From: Lingula anatina
Lineage: Eukaryota; Animalia; Brachiopoda
Length of the DNA stretch: 64,000 nt
Direction of reading: 5' to 3'
Assembly: GCA_051362555.1 (NCBI GenBank)
Contig: CM120642.1
Coordinates: 14,942,001-15,006,000 of the forward strand
The notes under the pieces were generated by a model that made no database searches, was not told the DNA's origin, and worked only from the letters and a program-made list of their open reading frames with translations. Shown one piece after another: positions 20,210 through 60,509 of the stretch (within the stretch, counting starts at the first letter, position 1; the number at the start of each line of letters is the position of its first letter). Position numbers and translations under genes: made by a program.

Positions 20210-20245
<36 letters not shown>

Positions 20246-23130: not shown

Positions 23131-23161
<31 letters not shown>

Positions 23162-24205: not shown

Positions 24206-24239
<34 letters not shown>

Positions 24240-24960: not shown

Positions 24961-25853
24961 ACCATAAGTAATTTGCTCGTCAGAATCAAAATGGAATGAC
25001 GTAGAAGCTCCAGCAACTTTTTCCATTTTATTTGTTTATATCAGCTACAGATATTTGAGCTGTTTTATATTAATTTGGCTTTTAATTTGGAACCGCTTCC
25101 TATTCTGTGTTAATACAGCGGGTGAAATCCATTATTCTTATCCCCAACCTTGTTTGGGGTGCATGCTATCTACGTGATGTGAATAAGTCGTTTATATTTT
25201 TTAATAGTTAAAATAATTGATTCATATTAAATGTGTAATGTGGTGTGGTCTTTTTTAACCATAAAAGGTAGGGAGAAATTTTAAGCACCATAATAGCCTT
25301 TTAGAAAGGTTTATACCCTTATCCGAAAATGGAGATTACAGTAGAACAATTATTTTGTTCCTTAATGAGTGCCTTCACTGGAGTATAAAATCATTTTGTA
25401 GATGCTTGTAAGCAAATGTCAATTTGCTGACACGTTAACGGTCTTTGCTTTTGGTATAAAAGACATGCATCGTTTTATTTGGCACTAAATACGTTAGATA
25501 TACATGTAACCATAAGTGTTGTGCTCACCAGATGGAATTATGTAGAATCCCGAGCATCTTTTCCCTTTTATTTATTTAATGCGTTGTGAAGAAAATGTGT
25601 ATTAAGTGATTTTAGTCACTTGAAAATGATTGTTCTCTTTTATGTCTACATAAAGATGGGTACATCTGTACGACCATTTCAGATAAGTCATATTATTATT
25701 ATTATTGCTACAAACACGAGTAAATCTTGTGATTGAATCCCAATGCCAATAAACAAGAGATAAGAACCCTTATCACGAGGCAACAAGTCACTAAAAGGGA
25801 CGCTTAAATGGTACCTACCCTGCGAATTATCAAGTCCGCATTACTGATTTAAA

Positions 25854-27835: not shown

Positions 27836-28395
27836 TCTTGAAAAAAGATATCATAAAAACAAACACTTTAATTCATAAAGTGCTCTAAAAGAAAACCGAG
27901 ATAGTTTAACAGGAGGAGAATGTAATAATGCACCAAACTTCGAATATAAATTTATCAAAAACTGACCACCATATTTCAACAAAATGCCAACATAAATTTT
28001 CCTTTTGTATGATATTGCCTTTTCATAAATAACTTGTATATTAATGCAATAAGGTATATGTGGCGTTGAATTAAAAATATAGGCCTTTATGCGAAACATG
28101 ACATTGCCGACATAGGTTGCCTTTTACCCCAGCAACTTTCTTCTTTTCTTTCTTTCTTTCTTTCTTTCTTTACTCTTTCTTTCTTTATTGCAATGTGAAG
28201 AAAATGTGAATTAATGAATTTCTGTCACTTTGAAAATGATGAATCACTTCGATGTCTAGATAAAAATGAAAAGGATCGATTCCGATAAGTTGCATTGATA
28301 TAGATTTTAACGCTAGTAAATCACGCGGAGACACCTTAATACCAATAAACAACAGATTAAGAACCCTTATCGGGTCAGTAAAGGGGACACTCAAA

Positions 28396-30950: not shown

Positions 30951-31574
30951 TCTTGAAAAAAAGAAATCATAAAAACAAAGACTTTAATTCATTAGATGCT
31001 CTAAAAGAAAACCAGGATAGTTTCGCTGGCGGGGAATGAAATTGTGCATCAAATTTTTTAACATAATTTTTAATTTTTAACATAAAATTATCAAAAGCTG
31101 ACCCTACATTTTGACAAGATGCCAAAAGAACTACAACATAAAATTTGCCTTTTGATGTTCTGCATAAATAATTAATATAGTGCTAGGTTTTGTGCTAGCT
31201 TCGGAATAGGGTAATAACAAAATCAGGAATTCATGGAATCGAACAAACCAACTTTGGTAAAAAAAAAAGAATTAAAATAAGTCAAATAAAAGTAACAAAC
31301 CGAGTCAGTAACTCAGTAAACCTGACTAATTTGATGGTAACAAACCACATACGTCGTCAGGCTGGAGTAAAGAATATCATAATTGAGAGGGGGAAATAAC
31401 GGTTTGTGAATTTGTTTCATAGGTGGGTCCTGGAATACACCATGTTGTAACTTCGGCTTAACTTGGGGACTGTATTAACTGTGTCCATGATTGCATAAAT
31501 CAAAATGCCTTATAAAACTTAAGTCAGAACGCCTAATGCGACAAATGCTACCGAAAATGATAAAAATACAGTAA

Positions 31575-31789
31575 GACTGCATTCCCACAGATTTTAGATC
31601 GACCTATCCCCGTGGGGAGTCTCACTAGATTACTGTCAGCTTAGCCGGCTTAAATGTCTGTCCCGCCTACTAAAAGCTGTAAGGAGGTAATTAACTTCCG
31701 TGCTCTCTCGGCTGACAGCAATTTGGCATGAACCCCCAGGGAGTTAGGTCGATCCAGATGGATCGATCTAAATCTGTGGGAATGCAGTC
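31575..31789. mobile_element. Fold-back MITE family A, copy 4, with TAA TSD (PIF/Harbinger Tourist-like)
   Basis: TIRs GACTGCATTCCCACAGATTT / AAATCTGTGGGAATGCAGTC; TAA at 31572-31574 and 31790-31792. Confidence 0.85.
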
Positions 31790-32369
31790 TAAGACTCCAA
31801 AACCTTCACCTTGCGCAAACATTAAAATTGCAAATAAAAGGATTACTGAATCGTATGTCCGTAAGTATTTTTAATACTGCTCCTTTAACAACACAGCAGA
31901 ATATCGATATAATATAATCGATATCCCAGATACCATTCTATACCTCGATACGGAGCCTGTGTGTGTGTGTGTGTGTGCGTGTGTTGTGGAGGGGGTGCAT
32001 GGTCGGGAGGGGGAGAATGAAGAGGTGGAGCAGGGATTTTAACGTGTTCGACACACGTACACTATGTGAGATGTATATGGGACCATGTATTTCGCACTAC
32101 ATCATGATCACTACTGTTATACTTAGTATTTTTTAGATAATATACAACACCAACATAAACATCTACGATTATGTATGCCGTCCTAGCGGAGAAGCCTAAT
32201 GTTCAGTGTCATATTTCCAAATCTATATTTCGTTGATTTTTGGACTTTAAAATTTTAGCATCACTATTTGCAAACATCCAAAACTTTGATACCGACCATA
32301 TTTGTGCATAATTCTCACATATACAGCGACCTCTTTAAGAACAGCACTTTTTCTTACTTTAATTAATAG

Positions 32370-32898
32370 GAACACAATAATGCCGACACTAAATGTAAGT
32401 GAGCATTAAGACGAAGTCAAAATTCTTGAAACCTTTGATAAAACGTCATAAACGACATGCCGTCACCAAGAATCTTGATTACACACATGCCGAAGAGATT
32501 GGTGTCACTGGATGCATGGAAGAAGAACATCAAGGTTATCATTGTCAGCAGAAACCCGAAAGATGTGGCCGTGTCCTTCTGTGCCTTTACAAACGCTTGT
32601 AACTTGTAAACTGCATGATTACAGTGGCACTAAATGACTTCGCACGGATTTTTCTCGCTTTTCTTGCAAGGAAAAGGTAAAGAATAATATTGATTGTCAT
32701 AATTATTGCCATAAGCGGTTTTTTTGTAAAAAAAAAAGATCTGATATGATCTATGTGCGAATTTTACAGGTGTTTATTTATTTGTTTATTTATTTATTCA
32801 AGTTGCGGGAAGTTCATGGTTTGAGAACAAGAAATGGTTTGAGGCAGCCAACGACAATCCTAACTGCTTGTTTCTGACGTACGAGGACATGAAAAAAA
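32370..32898 (+). pseudogene. Degenerate fragment of a SULT-A-type gene (exons 2 and 3 only)
   Basis: High identity to 22737-23265, including flanking intron sequence. TGG->TAA at 32378, CAT TAA, deletions and frameshifts; exons 1, 4 and 5 not found. Confidence 0.9.
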
Positions 32899-33440
32899 GT
32901 AAGTTTACATCTGGGGCATCAAATGAAGGATTTTTAACAATCATAATCGATATGACAGTAATAAGTTACATTTTAACTTGTGTATGATAGATTTACTGAA
33001 ATCTTGTGAACAGAGCAAATAAGGTAGGCCTAAATGTTTTCTTTTAACGAATGGTTGTTGATTTCTTGTACTTGCCCTAATATGTCCATACATAAAGCAA
33101 GTTCAATGATTTTTATCCTACAAAGTTGTTTTACACATACGCACATGTAACAATGAATGGTTTGCTCACAAGAATCGAAACGAAAGGATGTAGAAAGCCC
33201 ATTACTTATTTATTTATTGTGATGTGACGTGTATAAATGGATTATAGTCACTTTAAAAATGATGATTCTATTTGGTGTCTAAATAGAGATGGGTAGGACC
33301 ATTTCATATAAATACTATTATTCCTATTGATTTTAACGCTAGTAAAGCACGCAGTGACACCTCAATACCAGTAAACAACAGGTAACTTGGCCAAAAAAGG
33401 GGACGCTCAAACGTTATTTACCCTGCACCACTGCTTTAAA

Positions 33441-36400
33441 ATGGCGGAAATTCGAGTCAAAGATGCTGGAGGCCATGAATATAACGTGATAGAGTGGCGA
33501 GGGATGTATTTTCCCCTTTTCCCTGGAATAGTCCCTCGTTTGGAAACCTTGGGTACGTTTGAATGCAGAAAGGATGACATTTTGCTTTTGACGTACCCTA
33601 AATCAGGTAAGTATTATGGCCAAAAGGGCTGATGCATCTGAAATGTATAAAAATGATAAACAGTAGGGCCTACATAATTGTTCGATTTTTACGCCGTGGG
33701 GCAGACTGAAATCCATGCAGATTTAAAATTAGCCTAGGGCAAGGCGAAATCAAAATCACAGTCGATTTTAAATAATAAATAGCCTATATGGGTTTTCGTT
33801 AAAGGTGTCACTGTTTCTAGGTACACGATGGATATATTATATAGTAAGCATGGTAAAAAACAACAGCACTGATGACCCCAGCATGCACTCGATGTACCTT
33901 GAAATGCTCGACCAAGAGGATTTTGCCAAAATGGCGTCTCCCAGGATCTTGTCGAGTCATCTGCCCATACACCTCCTGCCGCCAGATGTGTGGAGAAAGC
34001 AGATCAAGGTCATCCTAGTTACCAGGAATCCAAAAGACGTGGCTGTGTCATATTATAACTTCCTGAAAGGCATAAAGAAATTTGAATACAGTGGCCCATG
34101 GGAATCGTACTTTCCAATTTTCACACAAGGGAAGGGTAAGATATAAATAGGGTATAACAGCCCCCTTGGCACCAGGTGTAGCTTGTGTGAATTCTACGTC
34201 GCCATTTTGGTAATAATACACGTGGGACTGCGCCACTGTTCATACTAAACATGCCTCAGTATTGTTGTGTACCTGATTCTTCAGGGCTTCGTTTGAAATG
34301 AAAGGGGACATTTATCGCGTCAGCGCATAGATAAAAACGCCTTTGGAATACAGGTCGGTACAGTGTCGTGTGTGCGAAGCACCCCACCCCTCTGATTATA
34401 GAAAGACATTTACTGGTAAGAATATGTTGCTTATTATCTAACATAATCTTCACCAATAAGATATTTTTATATGTACTTTTAGGAGGAAACTAAGGGTCCC
34501 GAGAAATTTTACGCATTTATTGTCTTTAAAAGGGTCAATGCTCACCTGCAGTTCCACGGGGTCATGTCGATACTCCCGCGCACCGATACTCCCCCTCAGT
34601 ATATCTGTAATTGTGGGGGAGTATCGGTGCGCGGACGTATAGGCATGTAACCCAGTCCACGACCCCATCATCTGCACTTCCGTTATAATGTAATGTAATG
34701 TAATGTAATGTAATGTAATGTATACCCATGCTTGACTGTCACATTGATTGATTAGATTTAATCCACGATTGGCTTCCCTTTATTGGATTGTGGCTACCTA
34801 ACTAAAGACAAGTAGGCCTGGGCCTAACTAGTAAAACAGGATCAATACGTATTTTCTTGATGCTGAAAGTGAATAATATTGCGTGCCTTGCAAGAAAACT
34901 TTAAAGTTTTGATTTATATTGCAGGTAACTATTGATGTTTGAAATCAACAGCAATTGTGACAGACAGATCATTGAACCCCGTTCATCCTGTGGAACCCCT
35001 GGTGATAGCACAATGGCTGACAGAGGGATATAATGGTTCAAGATTTGTTTGCTGGAAGGGGGCATTAGTGCGCTGGATTTGGTCTTAAAGTGCAGTTTGA
35101 TATCACAAATGATCTTAAAAGATCTTAATCATTACAGCAGTAGTCTTAAAATGGACTGAATCTGCTTTTAAGATCAAAAATAATCTAACATCTACTTGAG
35201 TGGTTAAGCAGTTTCCTCCCCTCACAATAGAGGACACCTCTGCTCACAATAGGAGAATGTGTAAGGGGAGACAACTTAATTGGCTGTCAGTCCAGAATTG
35301 GTCTTACTCATGGCTTAAGATCATGTTAGACTATTTGTGATCTTAAATTGCACTTTAAGACCAAATCAAGCCCACTAGTGGATGTCCATGTTAACACACC
35401 TTCTATGTTAAAGGGCAAGTCACAACTTGACCCAGGCACATTAATTAGAGATGGACAGGTTGCATTAAAAAGAATACATGTAGAAAGGTTAATTGGTTTT
35501 GGCAAAACGTATAAGGTCTTGGTAAAACGTATGAGTGCCCCTAGGAGTGTTTTCTCATGTCCATTTTCAGAAGAGCTATTGTCAGTAAATATTCATAAGC
35601 ACTCCACGTACCTGCATAAGGTTATATTATAAAGTGATATTCTTTTTTTATTGATGTAATGAGCATGACAGGCAATGTTACGTAAAGCATTGTTATTCAG
35701 TCTACTGTAAGAATCATGAAAGGATGTATAAGTTAAATAATTTATTTGTGCACCAACTTTCCTGAATGTGTAGCTGCAATTTCTCGGCCAATGAAATACT
35801 GCAGATATGGAAAACTTTCTATAAAAGTTTCAGAAATAAAATTCAATAAACGTAAAAAACATTTTACAAATTTACACAGTTTTTTGTTCTTTTTACAAAA
35901 TAGCACTACTGAATTATAGTGCTGCCAGCGCGGCGCCGGCGGTGCACGTGGTTTTAGTCCAGAGCTGTATCGTTCACCGGGTGCTCCCCACGTCACCGTT
36001 ACCGCTTCTCCTCCTAAACTACAAGAGCCCCAGTATCCATCTCCTGTGTGAAGGTCACATATAATCTCAACTCGATCCACATGAATTTTGGGCTTTGTCG
36101 GTGCTCGGGTCCAGGTGTGGCGCTAGACGCAATGCTCTCTTGTTCTAAATTTGCAAATCCAAATCGAAGGATTTATGGGAAATTTCTTCAAAGATGGCTG
36201 ACAGACAGTCATAAATCAGTCAGGAATACACCAGTACTGTGATCAGAAAGCATTTAAACAACTTAAGATCGCGCTTTGCAACATTTTTTTCCAAATGGCC
36301 TAGTGAACCTCGCCGTATTTAATCTTTGATATTAGTGAATTAAAAAACTGCTCTTAATAATGTTAGTAGTAACCAATATTTCATTGCCACGTCTAAAGGC

Positions 36401-38014
36401 CGTTTGACAGTGCTTTGCAGGGTGCGACTCTGAAGACATTGGAAAAAATGCTAAAAAAGCAATAGATAAATAAATAAATAAATACAGAAATTTATCGATG
36501 TCCATTATTTTGAATTTATGTGTATTTAACAACGTGCATTTCACTCATTTTAGTTCCTTACGGCTCTTGGTTTGACCATACCAAAGAGATGTGTAAGAGA
36601 GTGGACAGTTATCCCAACTGCTTATTTCTTACTTACGAAGATATGCTTAAGGTATGCAGAGGAATGCGTATTTAGTTCAACATTTAATCGACTATTAATT
36701 CCCTCGATGCCCGAGTAAAATCTATTATAAGTGACACAATGTATAATTAAAATCTTAAATTTGCAAAAAGATATGGGAACAGCATTTTCCAATTGCATTA
36801 TTGTAATGGTTAGAATTCTGCGGATTGTCGTCACAAGCTAACACTGTTCTGCAGAGTTGAGATATAATATAATAAATAATTTACAAAATCTAATAAAAAT
36901 GCAGCATCAAAACATAACAAGCTTTGCTTAATTGCACTATTTTAATACAGGATTTACCAGCCTCTGTGAAAAAAATAAATTCCTTTCTCGGCTTTGAACG
37001 ATCAGACGCATTTTTGGAGGAAGTAGCGCAGAAGTGCACATTTTCCTCGATGAAAAGATCTGAAGAAACTGGAGAACCGCAAACATATCTGAAGGATGGT
37101 CACAGATTTTATAGAAAAGGTTTGTTAATGGTCTTTTTGATTTTCTATCTTTCAGTTTACGTGTCAATTGTTGCTTTCTTCTTCCAATACATCTCATCTT
37201 CTTCCAATTCCAAATTCCCTGTTACCACTAAATTGAAGGGTCTTTTCGCATCGACCAGTCTACGTTGACAGGTGCTATTAGTATACGTTGCTGGTTGGTG
37301 TTGGTGGTGGTGGTGGTGCGTCTTACTCCCTTTCATTCATCTTTGACATGTTTGCTTCCTGCTGTATAATTAATAAATTAATTGACCACGTCACGCGGGA
37401 GCTCTTTTTAGGTGACTTAAAAGGGATAAATCTGAGATTCCAAATTATACAATAAATATACTTTTAACAACACATACAACGTGGACCTTCGTAGATGGGG
37501 GGGGGGGGGGGGGGGGGGGGGGGGGAGGGGGGGGGGGTCTTTCTCCCTCTCACTCGTCTTCGTTAAGTTGCTGTTTTACAAACACGTTTATTAATTGATC
37601 ACGTTAAGCGGATGTGTTATTATTATCTTGAGATTATTACAAAAACACATTTAAAAAATCGTCCAACTTTGAATGTCCGAAAAGATTTAGTTAAAACTAT
37701 TAGGAAGTGTAACAGAGTTATCGATTACTCCAGGGAAATCCATTTTATGGCACTTTTTTTAGCCAAAATGAAGAGTTGTCATCACGTCTGAGTGGATCGA
37801 CCCTCAAATTTAATAGAACATCACACTCAGGAGTGACATCATTTATTTTTTTAAAGAAACATCGTAGCAGCAATGCATTTCTTGTAATTCAGGTCAAGTT
37901 GCCGACTGGAAGAACTGGTTTACAGTGGCCCAGAATGAAGAGTTTGATGAGCTTTACCATGTCAAGATGGCGGATGCACCTCCTGACCTCAAGTCTAGAG
38001 TAGTGTTCCAATAA
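33441..38014 (+). CDS. Cytosolic sulfotransferase D; exons 33441-33606, 33821-34135, 36554-36651, 36951-37119, 37893-38014
   Basis: Paralogue of B/C with the same motifs; intact frame; intron 2 is enlarged by an insertion. Confidence 0.92.
34687..34721. repeat. (AATGT)n microsatellite
   Basis: Seen directly in the sequence. Confidence 0.9.
35059..35386. mobile_element. MITE with ~70-bp imperfect TIRs, nested in the SULT-D intron insertion
   Basis: Left GATTTGGTCTTAAAGTGCAGTTT..TCACAAAT pairs with right ATTTGTGA..AAATTGCACTTTAAGACCAAATC. Ends approximate. Confidence 0.75.
37497..37537. repeat. Poly-G tract (~40 nt) in SULT-D intron 4
   Basis: Seen directly; the paralogous position in SULT-C intron 4 has a shorter G run (~30239-30251). 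Confidence 0.85.
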
Positions 38015-38794: not shown

Positions 38795-41700
38795 CTACGT
38801 TTGTGTCTTATTAGAAAACATGCTTTTACACAGGATTACCCCTCCACAGAGAAGAAAACTCCCAAAGAGCACGCACAACAAACCAGAGACAACAGAAAAA
38901 GCAACAAATAGATTTGTATTTGTTTTCTTTACGTCAATGCTTGTGGAAGCGTTAGTTGTCAGAACCGGATTATTGGTGGTGGCGGCGGTGGTGGTGGTGG
39001 TGATGGTGGTATCAGTGGTGCTGATGATCTGCGGTACGTAATTAGAACCCATGTGAACTTTCATCTGTCCATCGTTCTCGGAGTCAACGACTTTGAAATA
39101 ATACCCAAACGACATCACGTCGACGCCATTTTGATTAACCGTCGTGACATAATTATCTCGCGGTTTATCTCGTCGTTTCCTTTTCCCCCACCCTGGCTTA
39201 TTGCCTGGACACTGCGATTCCACACATTCTGGGTTCATGTTTCCTTCCATACAGGCTGCCACCGAGCAGAAAAACCCCATGGTTCCGTTCGCTGGATTCC
39301 GTGGCGTGATACGAAACATAGGAAATGTTGAAATGGCCACATATTGGGACGACCCTCGGCTAAATCCGTTAAAGAAAGGGACGACTGGACACCCGCCAGA
39401 GAGTAGTTCTATAGTTTTCCATTCATTGGTATCTGTGATGCCATTAGCCCAACATCGCTCAACCTTAATTTTCATCTCGCGTTCGCCAATTTTCCCCAAG
39501 ATTAACTGCATGGTGATATTTTCACCCAGAACCACCGGGGGACCGTTTGGTAATATGCTACTGTTGTCTTTAGATCGAAACAGCCTCATGATAGCAAACG
39601 AACCAACTCCTTCATATTTCACAGGTTGGTCAAATTCAAGAAGCACAATGACTTCCGCCATTATGTTAGTTATGTTATGTATTGTGGTGTCGTACGGTTG
39701 ACGTTTGCAAGTGAAGGGTTGGGCTTCATCTATGGTTTCTAGGTAGTAATCCTTATCATGTTGCAATATGACTGTGAATTCTTGGTCTTGCACGACGCCG
39801 CATTGCCCATATGGGACCGTAAGGACCCATGGAGGCTGCTGCACGTAACATCCAGCCTGGCTGTAGTGTTTGTCCACGTAGACAATACCTTCGTTGTTGG
39901 GCGGAGAGAACGTGTCCGAGCTCTCCGCGTACTGAATGGTCACTTCGGTATCGCCACAAACGATACTAGTGGCTATTTTTCCCGTTTTTCCACTTGCGTC
40001 TAGAAGTACACAAATGTTATGAAACAATCGACAACTGAGAACTGTTAACATAAAAGATCTTCAAAATCGTCATGAAACCTTAACGCGAGATAAATTAAAG
40101 ACGAACACAGTGAGTACTTTAACGTTGAGTGCATATTAATCTATATCACGTTACACGACTAACCGTTTATCATTGCATTGAAACGGGTGTCACAGCAAGC
40201 AACCCATTCTTTAAACGCATCGAACAACTTATTTCAAGGAAAATCACACCATTTAACTACGTTCTTATTCTGTTAACTTTTTTATTCTTCATACAGTCTT
40301 TCATTGGAAAATCTTACCTGTGTGATTGGTGCAGGTAGTGCCGTTAAAGTATTGGCCTAACGGGCAAATGCAGCTGTATAAGTGCACATTTGGGTAACAG
40401 GTGCCTTCATTGCAGGGATTACCAGCACATACATCTGAAACGAAATGAAACATTTGCGCCTTCAAGGTGTTTAAGCACGTGCACCGTGTTAAGGTAATCA
40501 AGGACGATTGTGTTTCGTTTTGCATGGTGGCCAAAGAGTTTTAACTCTCTTATGTGAAGCATTTAGTATAATACGGAACAGTTAAGAAATTACACGCAAT
40601 CCAGTGTGCTTTTCTGGTGGCCCAGTTAGCTATTTCTCCTTTGCACATGCTATGTGTTTTTTCGAGCTTTTGTGTGTTTTTCTTATGTTCACATCGTTCT
40701 TTGATATAGTGATGCTAAGTAAAATGATGAATATTTTTACTGTATTCAGTTTCGTAAAAGTTGATAAACATTCCCATATACGAGTCAAAACTATAAATTA
40801 CTAAATTTAATTTAACACCTGGAGTTAGTGAAAGCAAGACATCCGCTGTGTTTGCAGCAGTGCATGTATCACTGATTTACATATATTTATTTAATGATGT
40901 TTAGATTTGTTAAAATATCATAATTAAGTGCGCTGCAAAGAAGAACACACGGGGAGTAGGTCTACAACAACACAGAGGCTAATGTTTTTATCTTATATAA
41001 AATATCTGAATGAAAAGGCAATTAATAATGCAAGTAATTAACATAACACCATCACAAAAAAACTTACTTGTGCAAGTAAAACCATCTCCAGTGAAGTTAT
41101 GCTGACACCGGCAGGTATATGACCCAATCGTATTGAAGCATTCGGCGTGGTCGCCACACGTGTATAGTTCCAGAGCGCACTCGTCACGGTCCGTGCAGTT
41201 GGTGGCTCCGTCTCCGTCGAAACCCGTGGCACAAGTACAGAAGTAAGAGCCGTATGTATTCGTACACTGCGCGTACTGGTGACAGGAGTGTTGGCCCTCT
41301 TCGCACTCGTCCAAGTCAACACAGTAAAGGCCGTTGCCAGAGAAACCAGCGCTACATTCACAGTCATAAGACCCGACTGAGTTGGTACAGGTGGCGTTTT
41401 CACTGCAGTACCCGGGAACGGCTGCACATTCATCTATATCGTCACAAAATAGGCGACCATAACCGGTGAAGCCCTCATTGCATGTGCAAAAGAAAGAACC
41501 CGGAGTATTGGTACACGTGGCATTTCCGTCACATACAGTGGGATTGGCCTGGCACTCATCATCGTCTGAAACACAGATTATTTCACTTTTAACGTATATT
41601 TTCAGTAAACGAATGACTTGGGACGGTAATGCAGCGAGGTCTCCTCGGTATTTTTTTCACAAAAATATATATGTATTTATTCACACGCTGGACACATAAA

Positions 41701-44700
41701 TACGGCACACCTGCACGGAAGAAGCGAAAAACGGTAACAATGCCGCATATACAAAGAGTATGTTGGATCGCCTTAAACTGCCCTATAAAGGTTAAATAAA
41801 GAAAGGTTGATATGAATTTGAAATAAATCATCAGTCGAAAGTTCTGAAAAAAGTATCTGAAAACCGCCCATGTTTTTGACACTTGTACAATATTCGGGGT
41901 ATCACTTGTATAATAAGAACACACAGGCGTGTTGATTGTAGAAGAACTTTACTCGACTATGGCACAATGGGTGTTCAAAGCCGAAATTGTAAATGTCAGA
42001 GACAGAAAAGTATAGTCTATCTTACCTTCACAAGAACCCCCTGTCGCAGGAGCGGAGTAACCTACTGGGCATGCGCAGGAATAGGTGTCATTGATAGATG
42101 AAGCACACACTCCTACTCCACATGGAATGTACGTGCAGTTAGTGTGTTCTGAAAATGCCAAGATGTGATTTGAAAATTTAAATGGTAGAAATTGTAATTC
42201 GTTTACTAAAATGAAACTAAACGACGGCGGATGAAAAGTGGAAGAGTATTTCAATTAAAAAAATAAAACTGCATGCAACGACAGGCTTCATAAACGATAA
42301 TTGCCGTTCGCTGTGACAAGCATTAGAAGAAGGAGAACAAATGCCCGAATTAACTACTCGAGCCAAGAAAAGAGTACCCAAACATAAAATTAGTCACAGC
42401 GTCGTACCACACGAACAATTCGACCGGCTTCCATTTGGGTGTCTGGCTGTATAGATACCAGTTTTTTTTCAACCCTAGACTAGTATTTTGAATGAGGTGG
42501 AAGATCCCGAAAACGGCACGTTAGAGCTTTCATAAATTCCTAGTCGTATAAGAGTGATATTTTTCCCCTTCGTACTCGTGGCTACTGATTTTATGTTGGG
42601 AATCGTAATTCGTGGCTCGTGTCGTTAATTTGGGCATTTGAGCTCACAAATTTGAGGCTCGAGTTTTCAAACACCGAAATCGTTTATAAGGCCTAAAATA
42701 CAAACCAACTATTAATATCTGGAGTGCATTGTCAATTATGATGTAGACGATCAAAGTAAATGATATATTTTCAGTTTTTAGAGCCTTCTTTATTTTTCGT
42801 TTATTTTGCCAACATGAAAGTTGCGTGAGTCAATTTATGTGAAAATCGTCCTCTTACAATAACAATACCGTACCTACACATGTCGTTCCGTTAAAGTAAT
42901 AGCCACTGGGACAAGTACAGTTGTAGGAGGGACCGCCTTCAGTGGTGCAGGTCCCAACCCCGCAGGGACTGGTGGCAATACAAACATCTATATCTGGATA
43001 CAAAAATAGCAGTGAAAGATGAAATGACATTTACAAAAAATTGTACTGGATTCTTGCTCAAATACTTACAAAATGTGCAAGAAGAATAGATTACAATAAA
43101 TGCGTCGCGTAACCTAGCTTTTCTGGCTCATCAGTAGTGTTACAGCCGAAGTCACATGACAGAAACATTTATTAGAAAAGTTCACAGGTGATTTAAGTCT
43201 TTACAATTGATTCAATAAGAATGCGTGATTTTTATATACTTGCGGGTACTTACAGGTGTGTGTGTGTGTGTGTGTGTGTACGTGTGTTTTATGTGCGTGC
43301 GCGGCTGTATGGCGTGCAAAGGTTACCTTCATAAGTTGTAAGACTGAATCCTTTTGCACCCCCGGCCCAACCACGAAACAGAACCAACGCTGGCTCCCCT
43401 ACAGAACCCGTCGTCAACTTTAATGTGTCATACTCCATACCACAGAATCTAAAACGAAGCCAGGTGTAAGACAAAAGAAATTGAGGACATACACAAAGAA
43501 AGATCGACAGGCCGGCGGGAAAACTTGTTTTGTATATCTGTTTTATACATTCATATATAAAATTAATACATATATCCATCAATACTTATTGGGAAGAACA
43601 GGGCAAGATTTCGCGATAGTCGGTATGACAACAAATTAGGATTTAAATTGGTTTTACATTACCTCTTGCAAGTGCGGACATTCAATTCCCCGCTAATAAA
43701 AATACAGTTCTGCTTTTGAACATCTCCGCCCCATACTATTGCGATTTGTGTTAAAAGTTTTGTGTCATAAATCTGACAATTCATGTTGCCTCATGTTTCA
43801 GTTTTCCAGAATAAACTGTGGTACTTACCTGGACCCGGTAAAGGCAATTCCTTGGTACCTTATCTCCAGGTAGTCTCTACAGGCATAGTAAGTCCACAAC
43901 TGGAACCCATACTCAGGACCAATGCTGACCACCACCTTCCCGCCGACAGTACTCTGGACACAAAAATGTCTTCGATTAATTCGTTTCGGGTGGAATTTAC
44001 GTGTGAAGAATTATTTTCTTTTTATTCATTTTATCAATGTAAGATTCTGATTTACCGTAAGAGGGGCTCCAAACGCATCAAATTCATCCTTATTGAACTG
44101 AGGTAATTAACGGTTCATCTCCAAAAATAATCGTTTTTGCTTGATTTTAATTTTGTCCCTTTATGTACTCTTCTTAACAGCGACTGTTCGTGTTTGCTTG
44201 CTTGTTTGCTTGCATGCTTGTAACTCACTGGTCTCAAAAGCCACTGACATTTGGTTCCACCCTCATAGATATTGGGATAGTTCGGAGACGTTATAATAAT
44301 CGGGGTTGTTGTCACTGAAATTTCGGCGTGGCAGTTGTGTGTACCTAAAATCAAGACATTTAATTTACATATTTAATATGATACATTTTTGGTATTTTGT
44401 TTTGATTAATGGCTTACAATACATTGTCAGCAGTTAACAAATGTGCCTATCGCGAACTCGATTCTACGTCGATATTGACGTGTACACGCCGTACGCGTTC
44501 CTTCCCTATCGACGTTTTTAAACATTTTTAAAAATGTTTGGAACACGTTTGCTTCATCGTCGTTCATATTAGTGTCGTAATTCTAGAGATGAAAGCCATT
44601 TGCTTAAATTTGTTGAATTTAAAAACCTAATTCACTTTGTTCTGTCTCCGTAAATGTTTGAAAACCTTGCAGACATACATTAAGCGTACATGAAAAATGG

Positions 44701-49051: not shown

Positions 49052-51022
49052 CTTTTGTAGTTCAAAGACAAACTGACACAACAATTCACCCCCAGTACAG
49101 GGTTTTCTATTAAGAAACTTGATAATAATAAATAAGACACGAGGGTGAAAATGGCATGTGGATGTTTACACTGTTTTCAATACATACGTTAAATAATTAT
49201 TAAATACTCCAAAATTCGTCTTTGTCCGAGCAAACTTAGTAGAAAGTCTATGTAATGCCTTACACGGCCGATGCTAAACGGCCTGTGTACGAGTTGCAGT
49301 TATCACCTACTTTTTATTGGTTGTTATTGTCAACTCTTTTTTAAGGCTCGCGCGTGGAATCCTAATTGTACTATACACACCAAGTATGCCTACCTCACCG
49401 GATAAATATAACGTGTCAGGAAGCCTGAAACTATTTCCTTACTGCGACTACAAATGCATGTATCCAGACTTACCCACGTGTTTGTCCGATTCTCCATGTG
49501 AAGGGAGGCTATGAGGATGAGCAGTTGTTAGATTCATGACCTTGCACTTTAGTTCAGTGTCAAAGAATCTGACCTTCTACGTATCCCGGAATTCCCCAGT
49601 GATTAGAAGTTGGAATTCCACGATAAAGATTGTTCTCTTTTCCTCTCTTAGGTAGCTTAGCTCTAATTTACTCTTTAGATAAGTTGTGCGCTGTTTTATG
49701 TCGTTTTATTTAAACAAGACTCGAGATTTCAAGTTTACATAAGGTATGGACTCAAAGCCAAAGAACAATTGATTAATTTTTTCATTGAAAAAATATTCCG
49801 AAAATTCAAGAAATCGTCTCTTCATTTTCAAAAGATTGAAATCATTCTCCATTTTAAAATCAAATTTTTATATGCTTGCAATATATGGTGCATATATATT
49901 GCAAAGAAATTAGAATAAACCATTATTAATGTTATTATTATTATTATTAATATTCTACTCCGGTTAGTGGTAATATCAATCGTGAAGTTTGTTTCGCAAC
50001 CGAGATGAAGTGACAAGCAAAGATTTTTCTGTATTCATATTTGAAAAAATGGGGAAAATGGTCGTTTAAAGTGTTTGCACGCTGTATTGAAGTTTATAAT
50101 CAATAGGCAATATTTGAATAAGATATGTGATTTTTAGATATGGGTATAGTATGACTGGTGATGGTAGAATTCTCCCTGTGGTGGGTAGGATACAGGAAGA
50201 ATTTAGAACACTGGGAAAGATAGCTAGAAATCCATGACTCTTGTTGCCGTCTTGCTATGGCTATGAAATTAATTAATTCAGAACATCTGTCAATATTTAT
50301 ATCATCACTGTAAATCAAGTGTAAACTGCTATAATAAAAGTAATAAACATATATTAACTGGTTTATTCTATTTGTTTATTTTCATTCAAATGCCACAAAA
50401 ATTCAGTGTATTCACTTAAATAAACTGTGTCAGCATGACTTTTGTAAAAAAAACTTCTCAATATAAAAGGTTAAACGTTTGATTCACATGTCTAGAGTGG
50501 TTCAAGTACGACATCATGTTGTTATGACACAAGTAATGTTTTTGTATAATTACACTGACAATGATTAACACAAGGGGTCTTGATCAACTTTTTCCTGTTG
50601 ATATGACTCTCAAATCAGCCAATGTTCATTTTCGTTTGTTTATACAGACTTTTTAAAATGTCCAGGTCTGCAATTTATCTTAGATTGATGGGTAAATTAT
50701 TCCATTCTCTAGGTGCTGCAATTTTACACTGTATGCCACTAATCTTGCCATACAAGCTTTAGAAGGAAGGTGATCACCTGATCTAAGATTTCCATCTCAT
50801 TTAAATAAGAAGGTGCAAGTTTTTAAAATATTGCATGCACAAAAACAGATGAGATGTCACTTAATTTATTAAAACCATCTTTTCTAAGTTTCCTGGTATC
50901 TGCTTCACAATCGAAAGACAAAAGAATTGCGTTCTTTTCTTTTGTCAAGTGTAAGTTTAACCCAGCTCACCCTAAAAAAAAAAAAAAAAAATTGCCAATT
51001 TGATGTAGTCAGCACGATTCAT

Positions 51023-54000
51023 TTATTTGAGCTGTTGGTATATAACATTCAGCACGTTTCTCACTTTACAAGTACCGCCGTTCTGTTTTTCCACCACTTT
51101 CAAAGTCTGTCCTTCTTCCGTACCCACAGGCATTACAAGGCAGCCCCCAACCTTAAGTTGCTTGGTCAGCTGAAGGACAGAAAATTCTGGATATATAACA
51201 ATTACAAACTGGTATAGAAATAAATGCTAAAATTGTTCAAATTTCTATAAAAATGAATATGATGATAATTTTCACTGTTTCTTGCACATTTTTCACAGTC
51301 CTTATGATATAACAGTAAGATATCACTATAATCACAGTGATAACCTTAATGAAGTTGGGAATAACTTAACATATATTATACAACTGGCCGCACATGCATT
51401 TGTTGGCCATATTAAGTTAAAAGAAATCATTTTAATGCAAAATGGTGCTATAAACGTTCTTTTTATTCAGGTCGCAATGAGTTAATTTAGATATATAAAG
51501 AGAAGAAGCACCACTCGTAGCAATACTGAAGAATAATGGTATATCATAAAACAAATGCGTACTGCACTTGGTACTTCTGGTGCCGCCCCACCAACATGGA
51601 TGACGTCATAGGGGCCCAAGGCTTCGTGTCCATCTTTACCGTCGGCACACACCAGAACCAGGTGGTTGGTGTCCATTAATTCCCTGAGACGCGGATCTTT
51701 CTTCATGTTGGCTTCGGCAAACTTCACCAAACCCTCAACTATGTCAATCCCAACCGTGTACCCCGTTCTTCCTGCCTAAAACGATTGTAAAATATTGAAA
51801 TTAGATAACAGCTGCATGATGTCGGGGGAATATGTTACATTGCCAATAGTTGAAACTTTGAGCAAGCACCTTTTTAAATGACGCCATCAGTTAGAGTGGT
51901 CAGTTCGCCTACATACTTCTACATACATCATATTCAATAGGAACAATGTCTGACTTTTCATTGATTAAAATTTTCAAACAACCAGTAACGTTCAATAAAT
52001 GCTTTGACAGTGGCGGATTTAGACAAGAGGTCAGGGCTTTGATTTCTATTCCCTTCTTGAAACTATAATTTTGACTACCTGAATCAAGTTCTAAACCGTA
52101 TCAAATGGCACCGTTCGCCCTTAAAATACCAAAAAATTTCGGGGCCCTTAAGCGGGCTCCGAACCCCACGCCAAGTTGGGGGGGGGGATGGGAGCGTCGG
52201 CTTCGCATCTGCGTACCCCCTTTCAAATAGCCCTGGATCCGCCCCTGCTTGGATATAATTGATCTGGGCAAGCATCGATAGTGGTATTGATTCAACTTTG
52301 TTTTTATTCGGTATCAAATACAGGCTCGCAAGGGAAACATTATTGAGTAGATACCAATCCATTATTTAACCGACAAAAATCTGTTATGCGGCCTTGTAGC
52401 ACGATGCTGCTCCTTGACATAATCCTGTTTTGTAATAGTCCACATATTACTAACCATAATGGCCATGCAGGCCGTCAGGTATCCGCTCCCCATGCCGACA
52501 TCAAGGCAGCGAGCACCCTCCTGGAGACGATCCACCATCAGCTCTAGAGTGGCACCGTGCTGGAATATTAAATTAGTTTCTGTTGTCTCGTTCCCATTGG
52601 AAACATTATAAAAAATGACACTAAATCAAGTTTGGGAGAGCTATAATATTTTATTTCCATTTCGGAAAACTTGAGATGTAAAAAATTGTATTTTTATGAA
52701 AAACCACTAATGCGTTATAAATGACATTTTCAGTGATATGCCTCATTCTCGCATTGTTTAGTTAGATTAGTCCAATATATGGCGAAATATCATTTGGCTT
52801 AAAGCCATGTAGATCTATGCTAATAAAAATCCAATGTACTAGTATACACTGTAAAAATAGTGCTTAGCATTTAAATACATACAACATACGTTAAGCACCT
52901 ATACGCATTTAGAAATATGTGTAAAAGCTAAGCACGTATAGCTTTTCAAGCGTTTCACAGAAGAAAATGCTACACACGTTGGCAGTGTTACACGTTTAGC
53001 TATGTGCTTAGCTTCACCGGTATATGGATCTATAATAAGTCTATCACAAGCTAAGCACATTGGCTAGGCACTTCCCCTGCTAAGCGCGTGAGGCTGCTAA
53101 ACATATGGAGCTGCTATAGGTGTGGAATTCCTAAACGCGTGGAGCTGCTGAACAATACCCTCTATCAAGGCCGCAGTTCTTGGGGACATTTTTTGCTGAG
53201 GCGACATCAGACCAAATTGACTATCTATTTATCTAGAGACATATCCGTGAAAAATCAATCTGTCGCCCTGGTAGAGGGTAGCTGAACAACAAGTTTAGCT
53301 TTTCAAGCTTCTTTCAGAAGAAATAAAAATGTTTAACATTCTTAGAAGTGTCGCACTTTTAGCTATGTGATTAGTTTCACCGGTCCCATAAGTTTATTAC
53401 AAGGCTCAACAATTTGGCTTAACACTTCACCTTGTAAACCTGTGTAGCTGTGGAAGGCGTGGAGCAGTCTGCTCGAACGCTTGGTGTCCTTCCTTGCAGT
53501 ACGAGTGCTTATTTAAAATACGCCTATTAAAGATGCATACAAAGTCAATTTTTGCTCAAAAACCAACCAAATACCAGCATATAGTTTCAAAAAGTATAAT
53601 TAAGGAAATTGCCAGAAGGCATTGATTAATATTACCCGAAAAATAATATTTGAATGGATTTTTCTGTTAGCTTACTATCCTGTATATACATGGGGCAGAA
53701 AAGTAGGTCACATAAGTGGGTTAAATTTCTGACCAAAAATTAAAAGAGCAATCTAAAGCTCTTTTATGGCTGATCGAGTGATTTATTCAGTTTGTCCCTT
53801 GGCATGTCGACTTTATTTGAGTCGTATAAGAATCTAGTAGAGGTGGTTTATATGTGTTACTGGCAACCCACGCTCCACCGATGCTCGATTCATATGTACC
53901 TTTAAGTAATAATCCAAATAACAAATAACGTTTTCACGACGTTATCAGATGGTTACATGCTGGTAATGGTATAGAAGAACATTATGGTAACGTTATGGGT

Positions 54001-57000
54001 GTTTTAACTCCATGCAAAATGATGTACAGTAACGTTATAATTTGTAAAAAGATTCGAAGACCTTTTCTACAAAATTTTATGATACATGTAACATCATTTT
54101 GTGGAGTTTTATCAGCGTGTTTATAACATTCTGGAAAAACATTATATAATGTTTTGAAAACATTTTTTATATAAATAACCAAAACACGTCTTATGCTGTT
54201 TGAACTACAGTTAGTGGTTATTTCCAAAATTGGCTTGGGGTTAGTCGGCGACTAGAGCGGTGCAAATATTCGGACTATCGGTACCGAAATAACCAGCATG
54301 TGATGAAAGCTTAAATAAAGTATTATAATGAATACCCCACCATCATCCTGATGTTCTATTGTTCATTACTTCCGGCAAAAAATAATAGATATCACTACCG
54401 TAACGCATTTTATCAAAATATGGAGAAAGGTGTTTTAAAGTAAAAATGATAGTTGTTTCGTTCCTTTAGTGAACTAGTGAATTTTCCTAACCTGTTTTTC
54501 AGCAATACATTCCAATAAACTACCTCGCAAGGTCAGATAACACAAGGATGAATAAGTACAGCTGTAAAGATGATAGTGGAAAGTCAACGATGTTGACAGT
54601 TCACGGTACCCTGTTATAGAAAGAGATAACTATAGCAGTTAAAGGTGACCGTGAGTTCGTCTGTGTGTGTGTGTGTGCGCGTGCTCGCGCGTGTGTGCGA
54701 CTAAAACCCTTAGCACCTAAAAGTTAAACAAATACACCCTACATTTATAAGCCGTCAAACGCGTCATACTGCTAAACACAAGCGTGTAGCATGTTAAGAA
54801 GCTAAACATGTTAGGAGCTAAACGCGTGGAAAAAGTGCGACAAAACAGGCGCTTAGAAATCTGTTTAGGAGCTAAACACTGATTTTACAGTGTAATCTTT
54901 GCAAACAAAGATACCAAAACATATCATTTTAAAGTTTTTAGCTTAAGCAGCACAGGGAACTTAAAATGGCTGAAAATAATAACATAATTGTCTGCATGTA
55001 GATGAAAATAAATTAAATAGTAATTGGTTTAACATAACTCACAGAATGAAAGACGCCTGCATGTTAGCTAAATCCGAAAGAATGCTCCATTCCACAAGTG
55101 ACGGTATGTGATATAACTTATAGCAAAGCAAGCATAATTTAAACCAAATTATTGTAAAGACGATTACTTACCATGTGAGGTGCGCTGATAGTGGCCCCAT
55201 GGCCCACTTGCTGTGGTTTGTCTAGATATGGATTGTTAGGACTAAAATGTCCACGTACAACTGATGCCATGGCTGATGCAACACGTGGTGTTTTTACTGT
55301 GCCTTTAACTGTAAAAGAATATGAGCTTCAGGTGAGTATACTCAGTGAATATACTAGTGAATGCCAACTATTCCGTTGTGTTATAAACATGATAATTGTG
55401 CGTCTTTTGGTTGTTCAGTGTTGACAACATTTGCAAAGCGGAAATGCTACTGGAAGTGTATTAGTAAAGTGTATAGTGTACCGTAGGTACTGGTAATAAA
55501 GTTAATCAGAAGCGCGTGCATCTATAGACATATTAGAAAAATTTAAATTGGAGGGTAGGCCTACACTCTACCAGCGTCGTAGATAAATAATGTGCACTTT
55601 TGTGTCATCAATTAGCCAGAGACTTATCTAGTGAAAAACCTTTACGGTTTTTCGGACCAATGAACCTTCGGACTATCGAGACGCCCCCATATAGATGGGG
55701 ACGCATGTAATGTGACAAGAGTAAGCGTACACCTACTAAAATTATAGCTTATCATCATCATCGCCATGCATTAAGTAAAATAGTGTGTTGGCCTACGTAT
55801 AGGTATACTATTACCTGCAGGACTTAAAATGTTTGACATAAGATCCACCTTGTGCGTACATATATATATTATAGAACAGGCAATATGTTTGATGTGCACA
55901 GCGCATCATGGCGACCCTCGGGATCACATGCGTTGAGCTTACCTTCGAGAGAACCCACCAATAATTTGTTCTTCCGTTTATCTTCATCAGAGGCTACAAT
56001 GAAAAACGAATAAATAAATGATTAAAGAGGTACAGGCTTTTAATAAGCGGTAAAATGAAATTTGTTAATTTGCTTTTTTATTTTTCTTTTGCAGCACCGG
56101 ACTCTTTTCGAAAAAAAAAAAAAAGTACAATGAGCTTGGCGTTATTCTGTTTTTTTTTCTCTATAAATAAAGGTAGGGGAAATAATAGTGATATAAATAC
56201 TTAAACTTTTTGAAGTCATGTTCTGTAAAATATAATATCGTTGACATAGATAGACATATTTATTTCCATAATATGAAAAATATTAACAGATGTTTGTTAT
56301 TTAGGTTAGATCAATATATGTATGTATATATATTCCTATTTTGCCCGAATCGACCCTGTTTTACGAATACTGCATCTAGACATAACTACAATTTTTTTGT
56401 CATGAACTTACCTTCCGTATTTGTTAAGTCAATCAAGGAAGCAGGTGCTGAGGAATCAGGTGGTTGGTCCGTTTCTAGTTCTTCCTCTGTTAGTAACCTG
56501 CCAAAGCCTTCAATTATCCTATTCCTATCGGCACCGGCTTTCGCACCTGCTTTGAAGACCAGCTTTTGTAAATTTGGCAGGCCATCTACTTTGACGTCTC
56601 GAAGGTGGATAAGACGTTCCTGACACTGAGTCTTCATGCTGGAAATTTCTGCTGGGTTTCCATACTTGACCAAATTCACTGCGTATTTGGTAGTGCTTTC
56701 CATGGCTGCCAGAGTGAGTTGGAGACCCTCTTTGTATGCCTGTAGCTGCTTTCGATTTTGGGCTTTACCGTTTTCTACCTTGTCCAACAATTGCTTCTCT
56801 AGGGAGTTGATGATAGCGTGTAGCATTGCAGACTGATCTTTGATTTCAGATGAAACTTTGTCGGAGTAATCATCGGCGCTTTCCTGCAGTTGGTCCACAT
56901 TTTGCAGTGTTCCTTGAACTGAATCCATTTTCGTACTGACGCCAGGAATCAGCCCTTCGATTTCTGCTTTAAACTCTGTGACAAGATCTTCAAGTTGGCC

Positions 57001-57603
57001 ACATTCGTGGTTTATATGATCGAGCAGACGGCAGTTCACGCAGATTGCCTTATCACAGGACTTGCAGAAGAATTTGACCTGTTCTTTTGGATGAGCTGCA
57101 CACAAAACACGACAGTGGGAACGAACGGTATTTTGCCCTTTCTCGCTCTTCAAGTCATCCATTGTGACAATCCCATGCTCTTTCGTTGCTTTGGAACGCT
57201 GGTGTACCCTTGCACAGCGTTCACAAATAAATTCTTCACAATCAAGGCATTTTGCATAGGCCGGTACTTCTGTGCCATCTTCCAAACAGTACTCACAGAC
57301 AGTCGCCTTTTGTGAAAAACTTTTCTGTTCCTTTAGCAGACTACCTAGGCCGAGAAGGAGAAAATTAGTCTTCAGCCCTTCTAGGCCAGAGCTAGGGATG
57401 GTGGTTTCCGTGCGACACAAAGGGCACTGAAGGATGCCTGTAGATGCCCCTCGTGCTCGTGGTGTCTTCTTTGCCGTGTTCTGCAAACACTCTAGGCAGA
57501 AAGAGTGAAGACACGACAGTGATTTCGGATCACTAAAGATTTCTAAGCATATTGTGCATGTTAAAAAGTCGTCAGTGATAGTCTTTGACAGTACACCGGC
57601 CAT
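51023..57603 (-). CDS. ~614-aa TRIM (RING-Bbox1-Bbox2-coiled coil) fused to a protein-L-isoaspartate O-methyltransferase (PCMT/PIMT) domain; exons 57603-56412, 55993-55943, 55308-55172, 52559-52455, 51775-51563, 51169-51023
   Basis: Exon 1 encodes a C3HC4 RING, two B-boxes and a coiled coil, ending GAAG|GTAAGT (phase 1). A 51-nt phase-1/phase-1 exon reads SDEDKRKNKLLVGSLE. The remaining exons give PIMT motifs: NPYLDKPQQVGHGATISAPHM|H, LDVGMGSGYLTAC, GID, GPYDVIHVGGAAP, QLKVGGCLVMPVG, VIYQQL*. 1845 nt, no internal stops. Domain identities are high confidence; the fusion is inferred from splice phases. Confidence 0.8.
52008..52247. mobile_element. MITE family B copy in TRIM-PIMT intron 4
   Basis: Termini CAGTGGCGGATTT / GGATCCGCCCCTG; internal similarity to the 24766 copy. 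Confidence 0.75.
52847..54892. mobile_element. ~2.05-kb non-autonomous CACTA/EnSpm-type DNA transposon in TRIM-PIMT intron 3
   Basis: TIRs CACTGTAAAAATAGTGCTTAGC / GCTAAACACTGATTTTACAGTG; TA on both flanks; many subterminal GCTAA(G/A)CAC repeats. Confidence 0.8.
53156..53280. mobile_element. 125-bp MITE with a 9-bp TSD, nested in the CACTA element
   Basis: TIRs TACCCTCTATCAAGG / CCCTGGTAGAGGGTA; GCTGAACAA at 53147-53155 and 53281-53289. Confidence 0.85.
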
Positions 57604-58614: not shown

Positions 58615-59803
58615 TTAATATATAAAAGTGTCTGTTTGGCGTCTTTTTCTGCGTTTAAAATTCAAGTCTTTGGATTCTATACAGTGACCCTTGTTAAACC
58701 AGTTGGCCAGCGTCCCTGCCTGGAACCACGTGACTGGCTCACTGGGGTCGTTTAACTTGGCACAGAGGTCGCAGTACGCCTTCAGTCGGTTCCCTGTGGT
58801 GTACTGATTCTTCCACTCTAAATATTGAACATAAGCCGTCACATTTTTGTCCAAATATTTCAGATAGGCTGCTAAATCTTTTGGAGATTTAAAATCGTTC
58901 GTATTGATATGCCATTCGGGTTTTATTCCAACCCTGGAATAATTGGCCGGACCTCTCGTAACCGTCACTATGTCTCGATCCAACATTTTCCAAAATTTCT
59001 CTGTGACCTAATCCGTTGAAATACTATTCTCAAAGGACAGGTAAAACTTGTAGTTCGTATTAATGTTCTCCAGACATCTTTCGTTGTCCCGTTTGGAACA
59101 TTTTAACGGACCACACCCACCGTACACGTCAACGGGGATGTGCTTCTTTAACTCTGCGACGTACCTCTCTCAATTACTCTTAGTGTGACAGTTACTGACC
59201 ACCCAAGCCACTAACTTCGTCTTCTTCAGTGCTATTGTCGTGAAATTCTTGACAAGGGGTTTTTCCCGCTCCACAACATACTGATACGATGTAAAAATTG
59301 TGGAATCTCGCCGAAATGTCATCGTCCAATTAAACATTCCCGCCCAAGCACCACTGGCCTCGCCGGAGTAACATGAGCTCTCGTGCGTCACCCACACCCA
59401 GCGCTGGTGAGGCAGTTTTTTAGGTTTCCTTCCCAAACTTCTGGCTATAAAAACAATAGCGTCGCTTTTATGAGCCAAAGACTTATCCTCAGTGTAGATA
59501 CAGTTGTCTATTTTACAGTCAAGGGATTTAAAGACCGGCTTGGCGTAGTCCCTGAGGTGCATGTAGTCCCATCCGGGCCCTGGGGTCCAGGACAAGATCA
59601 GCTTAGGCTTGCCGGGCGGCCCACGGGTTACCTTCGTATCAGAATACGTAGTGGTTTCGCTTTCCTTTGTCACAACTTTTGCTGTAGTAACTGGGTAACG
59701 CATAGGTATCTGCTTCAAAGAGTAGATATCCGACAGTTTTATAAGAATGAATAATGTGGATATCGCAAAAAAGATTGTTCTGCATAGTTTTCCGGCACTG
59801 CAT
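58615..59803 (-). pseudogene. Single-exon alpha-1,3-fucosyltransferase (GT10) pseudogene
   Basis: Type II TM (TIFFAISTLFILIKL), HQRWVWVTHES, FNWTMTFRRDS, AWVVSNC, VDVYGGCG, YKFYLSFENS..D*VTEKFW. In-frame TGA at 59172-59170, TAG at 59010-59008, and an apparent +1 frameshift just after the ATG at 59803. Confidence 0.88.
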
Positions 59804-60509
59804 GAGTCGTTTTTTTATACTTCGTGAGGATACTTTCCCAATAGCTTGTTCCTCCATAGCGATATTGTTAGCTTTCTTCAACGCTTGATTTATAACTTGT
59901 GCAGCACTGAACGCCAGGAGACACCTGAAATATATAATACAAGGTTATAATATACAGGTAGGCCTCCAAATGCACACAATGTCACAGGATGAGTATCGCT
60001 TTGGTTACAGACATATACACCGTAGTTTAGGAAAGATATAGTGTAAATAGGACGAGATAATGGATAGCTAACGAGGGCGCCCGTAGAACATACAATATTT
60101 TTATATAAAATTAGAGTTATCATCATTTTCGTCCTACTTGTCTACAGTTGTTTTTGATAATTTGCTGTACAATGTCAGTTGGTGGCGTTAAGTCCGTAAA
60201 GTCCGTAAACTTTCAGCGTTATATTATCAGGTAAAAAGGTCTTTAATTGTCACAGTGCTCCATACCGCCACCAACCTTTAGTATTTTACTTACAAAGCGG
60301 TAAAATATGCCCAGTTTTATGGCTTGTCTAAATTTACAAAATTTGTTCCAAATCAAGTTCTACCCTTCTTCCCTCCCGGGAAGAAAGAAACTGGTCTCAG
60401 GCGTTTGGGACCAAGGTCTTTATTGGAAACAGAAAGAGGGGTAGCAATTTTGCACTTATTCTTAGCAATCGGTGTTCCTGTTCTGTTCAGCCACATACGG
60501 CTCGAGTCA

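Follow-up and report, generated by a model that had tools for sequence, protein, structure and literature searches.

Several described systems bring a protein isoaspartyl methyltransferase (PIMT) fold together with an E3 ubiquitin ligase. PCMTD1 and PCMTD2 (PDB 9oma) are receptors of the Cullin-RING ligase CRL5, and the report on PCMTD1-CRL5 describes a SAM-substrate channel, binding of isoaspartate (isoAsp) that depends on S-adenosylmethionine (SAM) and occurs without methylation, and the absence of helix 9, an element that restricts the pocket of PCMT1; the same source places pre-motif I along the isoAsp site and reports a Thr-to-His replacement in PCMTD1 as a block (PMC12590147). According to two further sources, mammalian PIMT binds TRAF6 and methylates it at Asn350, in the coiled coil, blocking oligomerisation and auto-ubiquitination (PMC10112892), and PCMT1 and cereblon provide a functional link between PIMT activity and an E3 ligase (10.1101/2025.03.24.645050). 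The gene considered here, from the brachiopod Lingula anatina, lies in a 64,000-nucleotide stretch of contig CM120642.1 (assembly GCA_051362555.1; hereafter the window) and places a PIMT-type domain behind a TRIM-type RING module. With PCMTD1 and PCMTD2 the encoded protein shares a PIMT fold within a RING ligase, the lack of helix 9 and a proposed reading of isoAsp degrons. However, those receptors use a SOCS box and separate CUL5 and RBX2 subunits, whereas the Lingula protein holds RING, B-boxes and coiled coil in the same chain, which stops at the PIMT and yields no Pfam match to a SOCS or BC-box. The PCMT1-cereblon and PIMT-TRAF6 systems are separate proteins acting in trans, unlike this one polypeptide, although coupling to an E3 is common to all of them.

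One minus-strand gene of six exons occupies positions 57603-51023 of the window (Table 1), its five introns all bounded by GT-AG and its joined frame encoding 614 amino acids without an internal stop. An earlier note made from the letters of the DNA had predicted this fusion, and its coordinates hold throughout: the donor at 56412 after 397 codons plus 1 nucleotide (nt), the 51-nt exon at 55993-55943, and four more PIMT exons. Its description of the 51-nt exon as having an acceptor and no in-frame ATG is likewise borne out, as the acceptor is pyrimidine-rich, an in-frame stop lies immediately upstream, the exon contains no Met, and the first in-frame Met after exon 1 is residue 428, in exon 3. 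Six RNA-seq runs chosen by species label (X1, X3, X4, X7, X8, X9) were aligned, with read stretches from X1, X4, X7 and X8 in one alignment and from X3, X7, X8 and X9 in a second, which covered the region of exons 1 to 3. Reads cross the proposed path 56412 to 55993 to 55308 in three runs, with 8 at the exon 1-2 joint (56412>55993; X7 4, X8 2, X9 2) and 9 at the exon 2-3 joint (55943>55308; X7 6, X8 1, X9 2), the alignment placing the former at 55994/56414 with one extra letter, a placement equivalent to the exact junction once a silent change at 56413 is allowed for. Since the shorter read side at both exon-2 joints reaches up to 56 letters (X7, X9), equal to the whole aligned exon-2 piece (55939-55994), some reads probably span both joints. 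Further downstream, 7 reads from X8 support the exon 4-5 joint (52455>51775) and 9 reads (X7 6, X8 3) the exon 5-6 joint (51563>51169); the exon 3-4 joint is absent among the junctions listed and present in both database models, and the intron adjoining exon 3 is without depth. Across intron 1, none of the four bins of 56010-56393 has any read depth in any of the four runs of the second alignment, on which ground read-through to the stop at 56386 was rejected, and the arrangement that would have separated the two halves, a TRIM transcript ending at that stop and a PIMT transcript of its own, was not seen. Intron 2 shows depth below one in two bins of a single run (X7), versus its nine spliced reads. 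The locus is a single spliced and expressed TRIM-PIMT gene, with four of its five splice joints supported by reads.

Existing database entries treat this locus in two ways. Lingula anatina XP_013390896.1 matches the TRIM frame at 99% identity, and RefSeq splits the locus into a 438-amino-acid TRIM that runs into intron 2 and a 187-amino-acid PIMT-like protein that starts at Met 428, the latter with identical copies on two scaffolds. In UniParc the fused chain, spliced at identical joints, is present as a 553-amino-acid sequence without a name (UPI00078A1659, here P0024) that differs from the window at 6 residues; P0023 and P0024 both share the C-terminal ending of the window. The split RefSeq annotation is corrected by the fused model. 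Variation in the reads points to constraint: 40 variant positions were classed (38 coding among 40 of 67 variant rows listed, one from a junction and one from the other alignment), and 28 silent stand against 10 amino-acid-changing codons (n=38), which at a nonsynonymous-to-synonymous site ratio of 3.39 comes to about 0.1 of the neutral expectation, the PIMT part alone giving 5:1. No second PIMT or TRIM copy was found in the window by tblastn, and no other Lingula PIMT occurs among the 118 matches listed in a further search, which is weak evidence on a separate canonical PCMT1.

Table 1. Parts of the Lingula TRIM-PIMT gene (window positions) and of its 614-residue product (residue numbers, aa).
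Feature	Position	Strand	Remarks
Exon 1, coding part: TRIM N-terminal half	57603-56412	minus	1192 nt = 397 codons + 1; Pfam, PDB sequence matches, AlphaFold model, read depth
Intron 1	56411-55994	minus	418 nt, GT-AG, phase 1; contains the 56386 stop of the unspliced open reading frame
Exon 2: first helix of the PIMT fold, no Met	55993-55943	minus	51 nt, phase 1-1
Intron 2	55942-55309	minus	634 nt; repeat near 55630-55690 inside; RefSeq 438-aa model reads through
Exon 3: second PIMT helix and pre-motif I (TISAPHM)	55308-55172	minus	splice sites, Pfam, reads; contains Met 428
Exon 4: SAM-binding motif I (DVGMGSG, Ser>Met)	52559-52455	minus	splice sites, Pfam; exon 4-5 joint in reads
Exon 5: acidic residue of post-motif I, motif II	51775-51563	minus	splice sites, Pfam, reads
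Exon 6, coding part: motif III, post-motif III Y-Q-Q-L, stop, no helix 9	51169-51023	minus	splice sites, Pfam, reads
Likely 3' untranslated region	51022-50568	minus	low depth past the stop, bins 50568-51135 in X7 and X8; end not mapped
C3HC4 RING	aa 16-63		Pfam, above cut-off; full ligand pattern matched
B-box 1	aa 102-143		PF22586
B-box 2	aa 167-201		PF00643
Long helix/coiled coil	aa ~204-335		AlphaFold model (predicted)
Acidic linker	after the coiled coil, exon 1		predicted disordered
PCMT domain	exons 3-6		PF01135, profile 13-203 of 210, pieces in order

Described C-terminal classes of TRIM proteins comprise filamin/NHL, PRY-SPRY, PHD-bromo, FN3, MATH, ARF and transmembrane types. Pfam and the predicted model agree with the earlier assignment of a RING, two B-boxes and a coiled coil to the TRIM frame, and the PDB sequence matches of this half are TRIM28, TRIM3, TRIM2 and TRIM56, including the RING-B-box-coiled-coil (RBCC) module of TRIM28/KAP1. 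In the Lingula protein these parts stand in the order found in ligases of the TRIM2/3, TRIM56 and TRIM28 type, with the RING first, then two B-boxes and a long helix, but the chain ends with a PCMT domain instead of filamin/NHL, PHD-bromo or PRY-SPRY. The expectation that no usual TRIM C-terminal domain would follow proved correct, as PCMT is the sole Pfam domain after the coiled coil, to the exclusion of all the classes listed above. The AlphaFold model of P0024 (mean predicted local distance difference test 87.8; predicted template-modelling score 0.48, so that the relative placement of the domains is unsure) contains the B-boxes, a 111-residue helix with a return helix, and a linker without order; its PIMT is modelled with confidence and has as its first element the exon-2 helix, at P0024 residues 339-355 or about 400-416 in window numbering. 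The top structural match of the PIMT model in the PDB is human PCMT1 (1.0 Å over 210 columns; template-modelling score 0.93 to the target), while PCMTD1 stands at rank 17; in sequence the domain is likewise far nearer to PCMT1, with 179 bits against 41 for PCMTD1, and the alignment with human PCMT1 begins at PCMT1 residue 12, on exon 2. With PCMT1 (PF01135; PDB 1i1n, 1kr5, 1r18) it shares the fold, 45-48% identity, pre-motif I and recognisable motifs I to III, and it retains TISAPHMH of pre-motif I, the glycines of motif I, both Asp residues and the acidic post-motif I. Unlike PCMT1, it stands behind a TRIM, has Val for Asp ahead of a conserved Arg and Met for Ser in motif I, changes the V-P-L of post-motif III (Y-V-P-L to Y-Q-Q-L), and stops directly afterwards, so that helix 9 is missing. 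The earlier characterisation of the protein as a candidate repair-or-destroy enzyme stands as regards a predicted PIMT fold but not as regards a canonical one: to judge from its residues, with the substrate-lining motif changed and the last helix lost, the domain is non-canonical and a repair activity is not to be assumed.

In TRIM proteins the coiled coil dimerises, RING activity depends on clustering, and the C-terminal domain chooses substrates. The reading that we prefer, at a probability of roughly 0.45, is that the PIMT domain may, with SAM bound, recognise isoAsp-type damage and deliver its targets to the RING for ubiquitination, in the manner of PCMTD1 but without membership of that family. 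Such a protein could have arisen when a duplicated genomic copy of PCMT1, complete with its introns, was taken up downstream of a TRIM encoded in one exon, the first coding exon of PCMT1 becoming the internal 51-nt exon of the fusion. If it follows TRIM biology, the coiled coil would dimerise the chain, the RING would be active upon clustering, and the PIMT would take over the role of choosing substrates. SAM binding is probably retained, to judge from the intact glycines of motif I, acidic post-motif I and TISAPHMH, though the Met for Ser in motif I leaves this less sure, and the altered post-motif III together with the loss of helix 9 may open or retune the substrate pocket, favouring a reader over an efficient repair enzyme. 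Targets bearing isoAsp-type damage would then be bound by the PIMT and ubiquitinated by the RING.

Similar combinations occur elsewhere in eukaryotic sequences. A search with the PIMT region, restricted to proteins of 304-968 amino acids, gave 39 matches, and among the 17 that were domain-scanned 10 combine RING with PCMT and a further 5 combine a TRAF finger with PCMT; they make up a RING-zf-TRAF-coiled coil-PIMT family (P0032 and kin) whose members are all without names, and which may resemble sponge TRAFs. A HMMER search over 1.84 billion representatives was followed through its best 150 of 16,138 matches, of which 28 long ones were domain-scanned, revealing RING, B-box and PCMT in three (P0298, P0302, P0304), RING and PCMT in two (P0348, P0402), and B-box and PCMT in one. 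All of these RING-bearing groups share with Lingula an N-terminal RING, a coiled coil, a C-terminal PIMT and a changed post-motif III, but they differ in belonging to other N-terminal families, with a single B-box or a TRAF finger. Nearly all PIMT motifs are retained in the TRAF- and RBCC-type fusions, the core of pre-motif I is entirely lost in the RING-PIMT protein P0348, and the loss of helix 9 is common to Lingula and most TRAF-type fusions. As a relative of the TRAF-type N-terminal half (L002) ends in a MATH domain, the PIMT appears to occupy the MATH slot of TRAFs. The closest TRIM halves to that of Lingula among the matches listed (P0264, P0265; 42-43%) carry neither PCMT nor any known C-terminal domain, and the nearest PIMT in the tree is P0268 (81/93), whose post-motif III is changed too and whose tail is short; these three could be fragments of split TRIM-PIMT genes. 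No orthologous TRIM-PIMT fusion in another animal was identified among the matches listed, and a word-index search with the TRIM half found TRIM plus PCMT in 0 of 22 matches. In the ESM Atlas the nearest cluster to P0024 (145 members, PCMT 100%, B-box 68%, score 0.88) is a lead only, while P0032, of the TRAF type, had no usable match there. A metagenome scan with the TRAF-type alignment returned three loci with the N-terminal half only and no fusion locus, and a viral scan returned four loci matching the PIMT half alone and no viral fusion; the latter (L004-L007) are PIMT homologues of 32-37% identity on four giant-virus (GVMAG) contigs. A separate coiled coil-PIMT clade that looks AT-rich (P0350, P0386, P0317, P0392, P0407) is without a RING, has a B-box in one member, and in two members shows an N terminus that is ubiquitin-like by eye.

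The earlier note also proposed that the ligase had evolved independently. The TRIM half of Lingula scores 217-350 bits against three TRIMs without a PIMT and at most 41 bits against the other fusions; the PIMT domains of the TRAF type group together in a single clade whose sisters are stand-alone PIMTs, and the two kinds apparently have four source contigs in common, which hints at a tandem origin. The RING-B-box-PIMT group falls with PIMTs of Stentor (support 98/86) and is for this reason likely to derive from ciliates. Separate fusion events are likely, as the N-terminal halves differ and the TRAF group pairs with stand-alone sisters of its own, but the PIMT tree by itself does not show them (p=0.12-0.51): in approximately unbiased tests, neither a single clade of Lingula with the TRAF type (p=0.505), nor one of Lingula with the RBCC type (p=0.202), nor one of all 11 RING fusions (p=0.12) was rejected. 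In a 51-row alignment, from which one gapped row was dropped and in which 5 of the 16 fused sequences belong to the B-box/coiled-coil group without RING, the Val/Ile of the substrate-lining V-P-L motif is changed in 16/16 fused PIMT domains versus 2/34 stand-alone ones, an association between fusion and post-motif III change that is suggestive only. It is possible, if doubtful, that eukaryotes have repeatedly built one-chain isoAsp-directed ligases by setting a PIMT in the substrate slot of unrelated RING scaffolds (the Lingula TRIM, the TRAF family, a second RING-B-box family and an RNF41-like RING), the same pocket residue being retuned each time, in which case isoAsp would be a widespread degron of which PCMTD1 is just the case studied in vertebrates.

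A number of observations weigh against a PIMT that reads isoAsp for its RING. The Lingula PIMT evolves fast, with a terminal branch of 1.2-2.0, and its D>V, S>M and VPL>QQL changes are unique to the two Lingula records among 360 sequences in a pattern count, in view of which isoAsp binding may have been lost. The Thr of TISAPH is kept, in contrast to the His found at the presumably equivalent position of PCMTD1, so the fusion is not a copy of PCMTD1, and for CRL5-PCMTD1 itself ubiquitylation has, by its report, not been shown to date (PMC12590147). The other RING-B-box fusions still have helix 9, and the post-motif III association reduces to three independent pairs on well-supported branches (p=0.25). 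The PIMT may also be a promiscuous fusion partner; PCMT is joined to a kinase, to a poly(A)/nucleotidyltransferase and to a phosphopantetheinyl transferase in P0055, P0060 and P0389, respectively, which may include mis-joined models. As for expression, depth is low overall, three of the six runs (X1, X3, X4) are essentially without exon coverage, and the reads mismatch the window at many sites, so that their source may be another population or a close paralogue.

Alternatively, an active PIMT could be tethered as a signalling brake or switch, methylating deamidated Asn in the coiled coil of its own or a partner ligase and thereby tuning oligomerisation and auto-ubiquitination in innate immunity. 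The reported action of mammalian PIMT on the TRAF6 coiled coil (PMC10112892) would be a precedent, an entire TRAF-PIMT fusion family exists, and Lingula retains TISAPHMH as well as an Asn-Gly at residue 278, in the long helix. However, Asn-Gly sites are common and the changes in post-motif III and motif I may impair catalysis, and this scenario appears unlikely. A further scenario, to which we also give a low probability, is that the fold has given up isoAsp reading and works as an adaptor or decoy for some different protein, specific to its lineage and acquired through the shuffling of TRIM C termini; the long Lingula branch and its three private substitutions would fit such a history, as would the loss of core pre-motif I in P0348 and the lack of PCMT in P0264 and P0265, but pre-motif I, which lines the isoAsp site according to the PCMTD1 report, is fully retained, and hardly any PIMT motif is missing from the TRAF- and RBCC-type fusions. 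It is quite improbable that the PIMT instead methylates a C-terminal Asn or isoAsp to yield a cyclic imide or ester that the tethered RING then ubiquitinates, which would unite the roles of PCMT1 and cereblon in one polypeptide; the catalytic pre-motif I is retained, but an imide-reading domain is absent from the chain. Two genes with occasional read-through splicing, as the RefSeq models, the trace of intron-2 coverage in X7 and the exon 3-4 joint missing from the junctions listed would have it, are very improbable in the face of nine spliced exon 2-3 reads from three runs, an intron 1 of zero depth, a 187-amino-acid model without the first two helices of its fold, and an exon 2 without a start codon of its own.

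A one-chain RING-PIMT would need E1, E2, ubiquitin and SAM only, which makes the isoAsp-degron question directly testable. With these fusions the TRIM family gains a further type of C-terminal domain and the TRAF family a replacement for MATH, neither of which was found in print in the literature searched, and the repeated fusion of E3 and PIMT supports a general link between the repair of protein damage and degradation or immune signalling. No published description of a TRIM- or RING-PIMT fusion was found in full-text literature, with subscription journals mostly outside its coverage. The novelty claimed for a TRIM-PCMT class is hence upheld in part: the Lingula fusion is apparently undescribed in print, but its fused sequence is already in UniParc and unnamed RING-B-box-PCMT and RING-TRAF-PCMT proteins are public.

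Elsewhere in the window, the intronic repeats at 55630-55690 and 53200-53900 attract big pile-ups of partly matching RNA reads with opposite-strand joints and are probably short inverted-repeat mobile elements. A family 10 fucosyltransferase (58615-59814, minus strand), immediately upstream of the TRIM gene, is interrupted by in-frame stops (TGA at 59172, TAG at 59010) and looks like a pseudogene or null allele. An EGF-repeat and ZP-domain membrane protein gene lies at 38795-42254 on the minus strand; on the plus strand there are a tandem array of cytosolic sulfotransferase exons at about 22700-37300, with at least 4 similar copies of which one is confirmed by Pfam, and CD36/scavenger receptor exons and NTF2-domain exons at 14153-16550 and 19824-20493.

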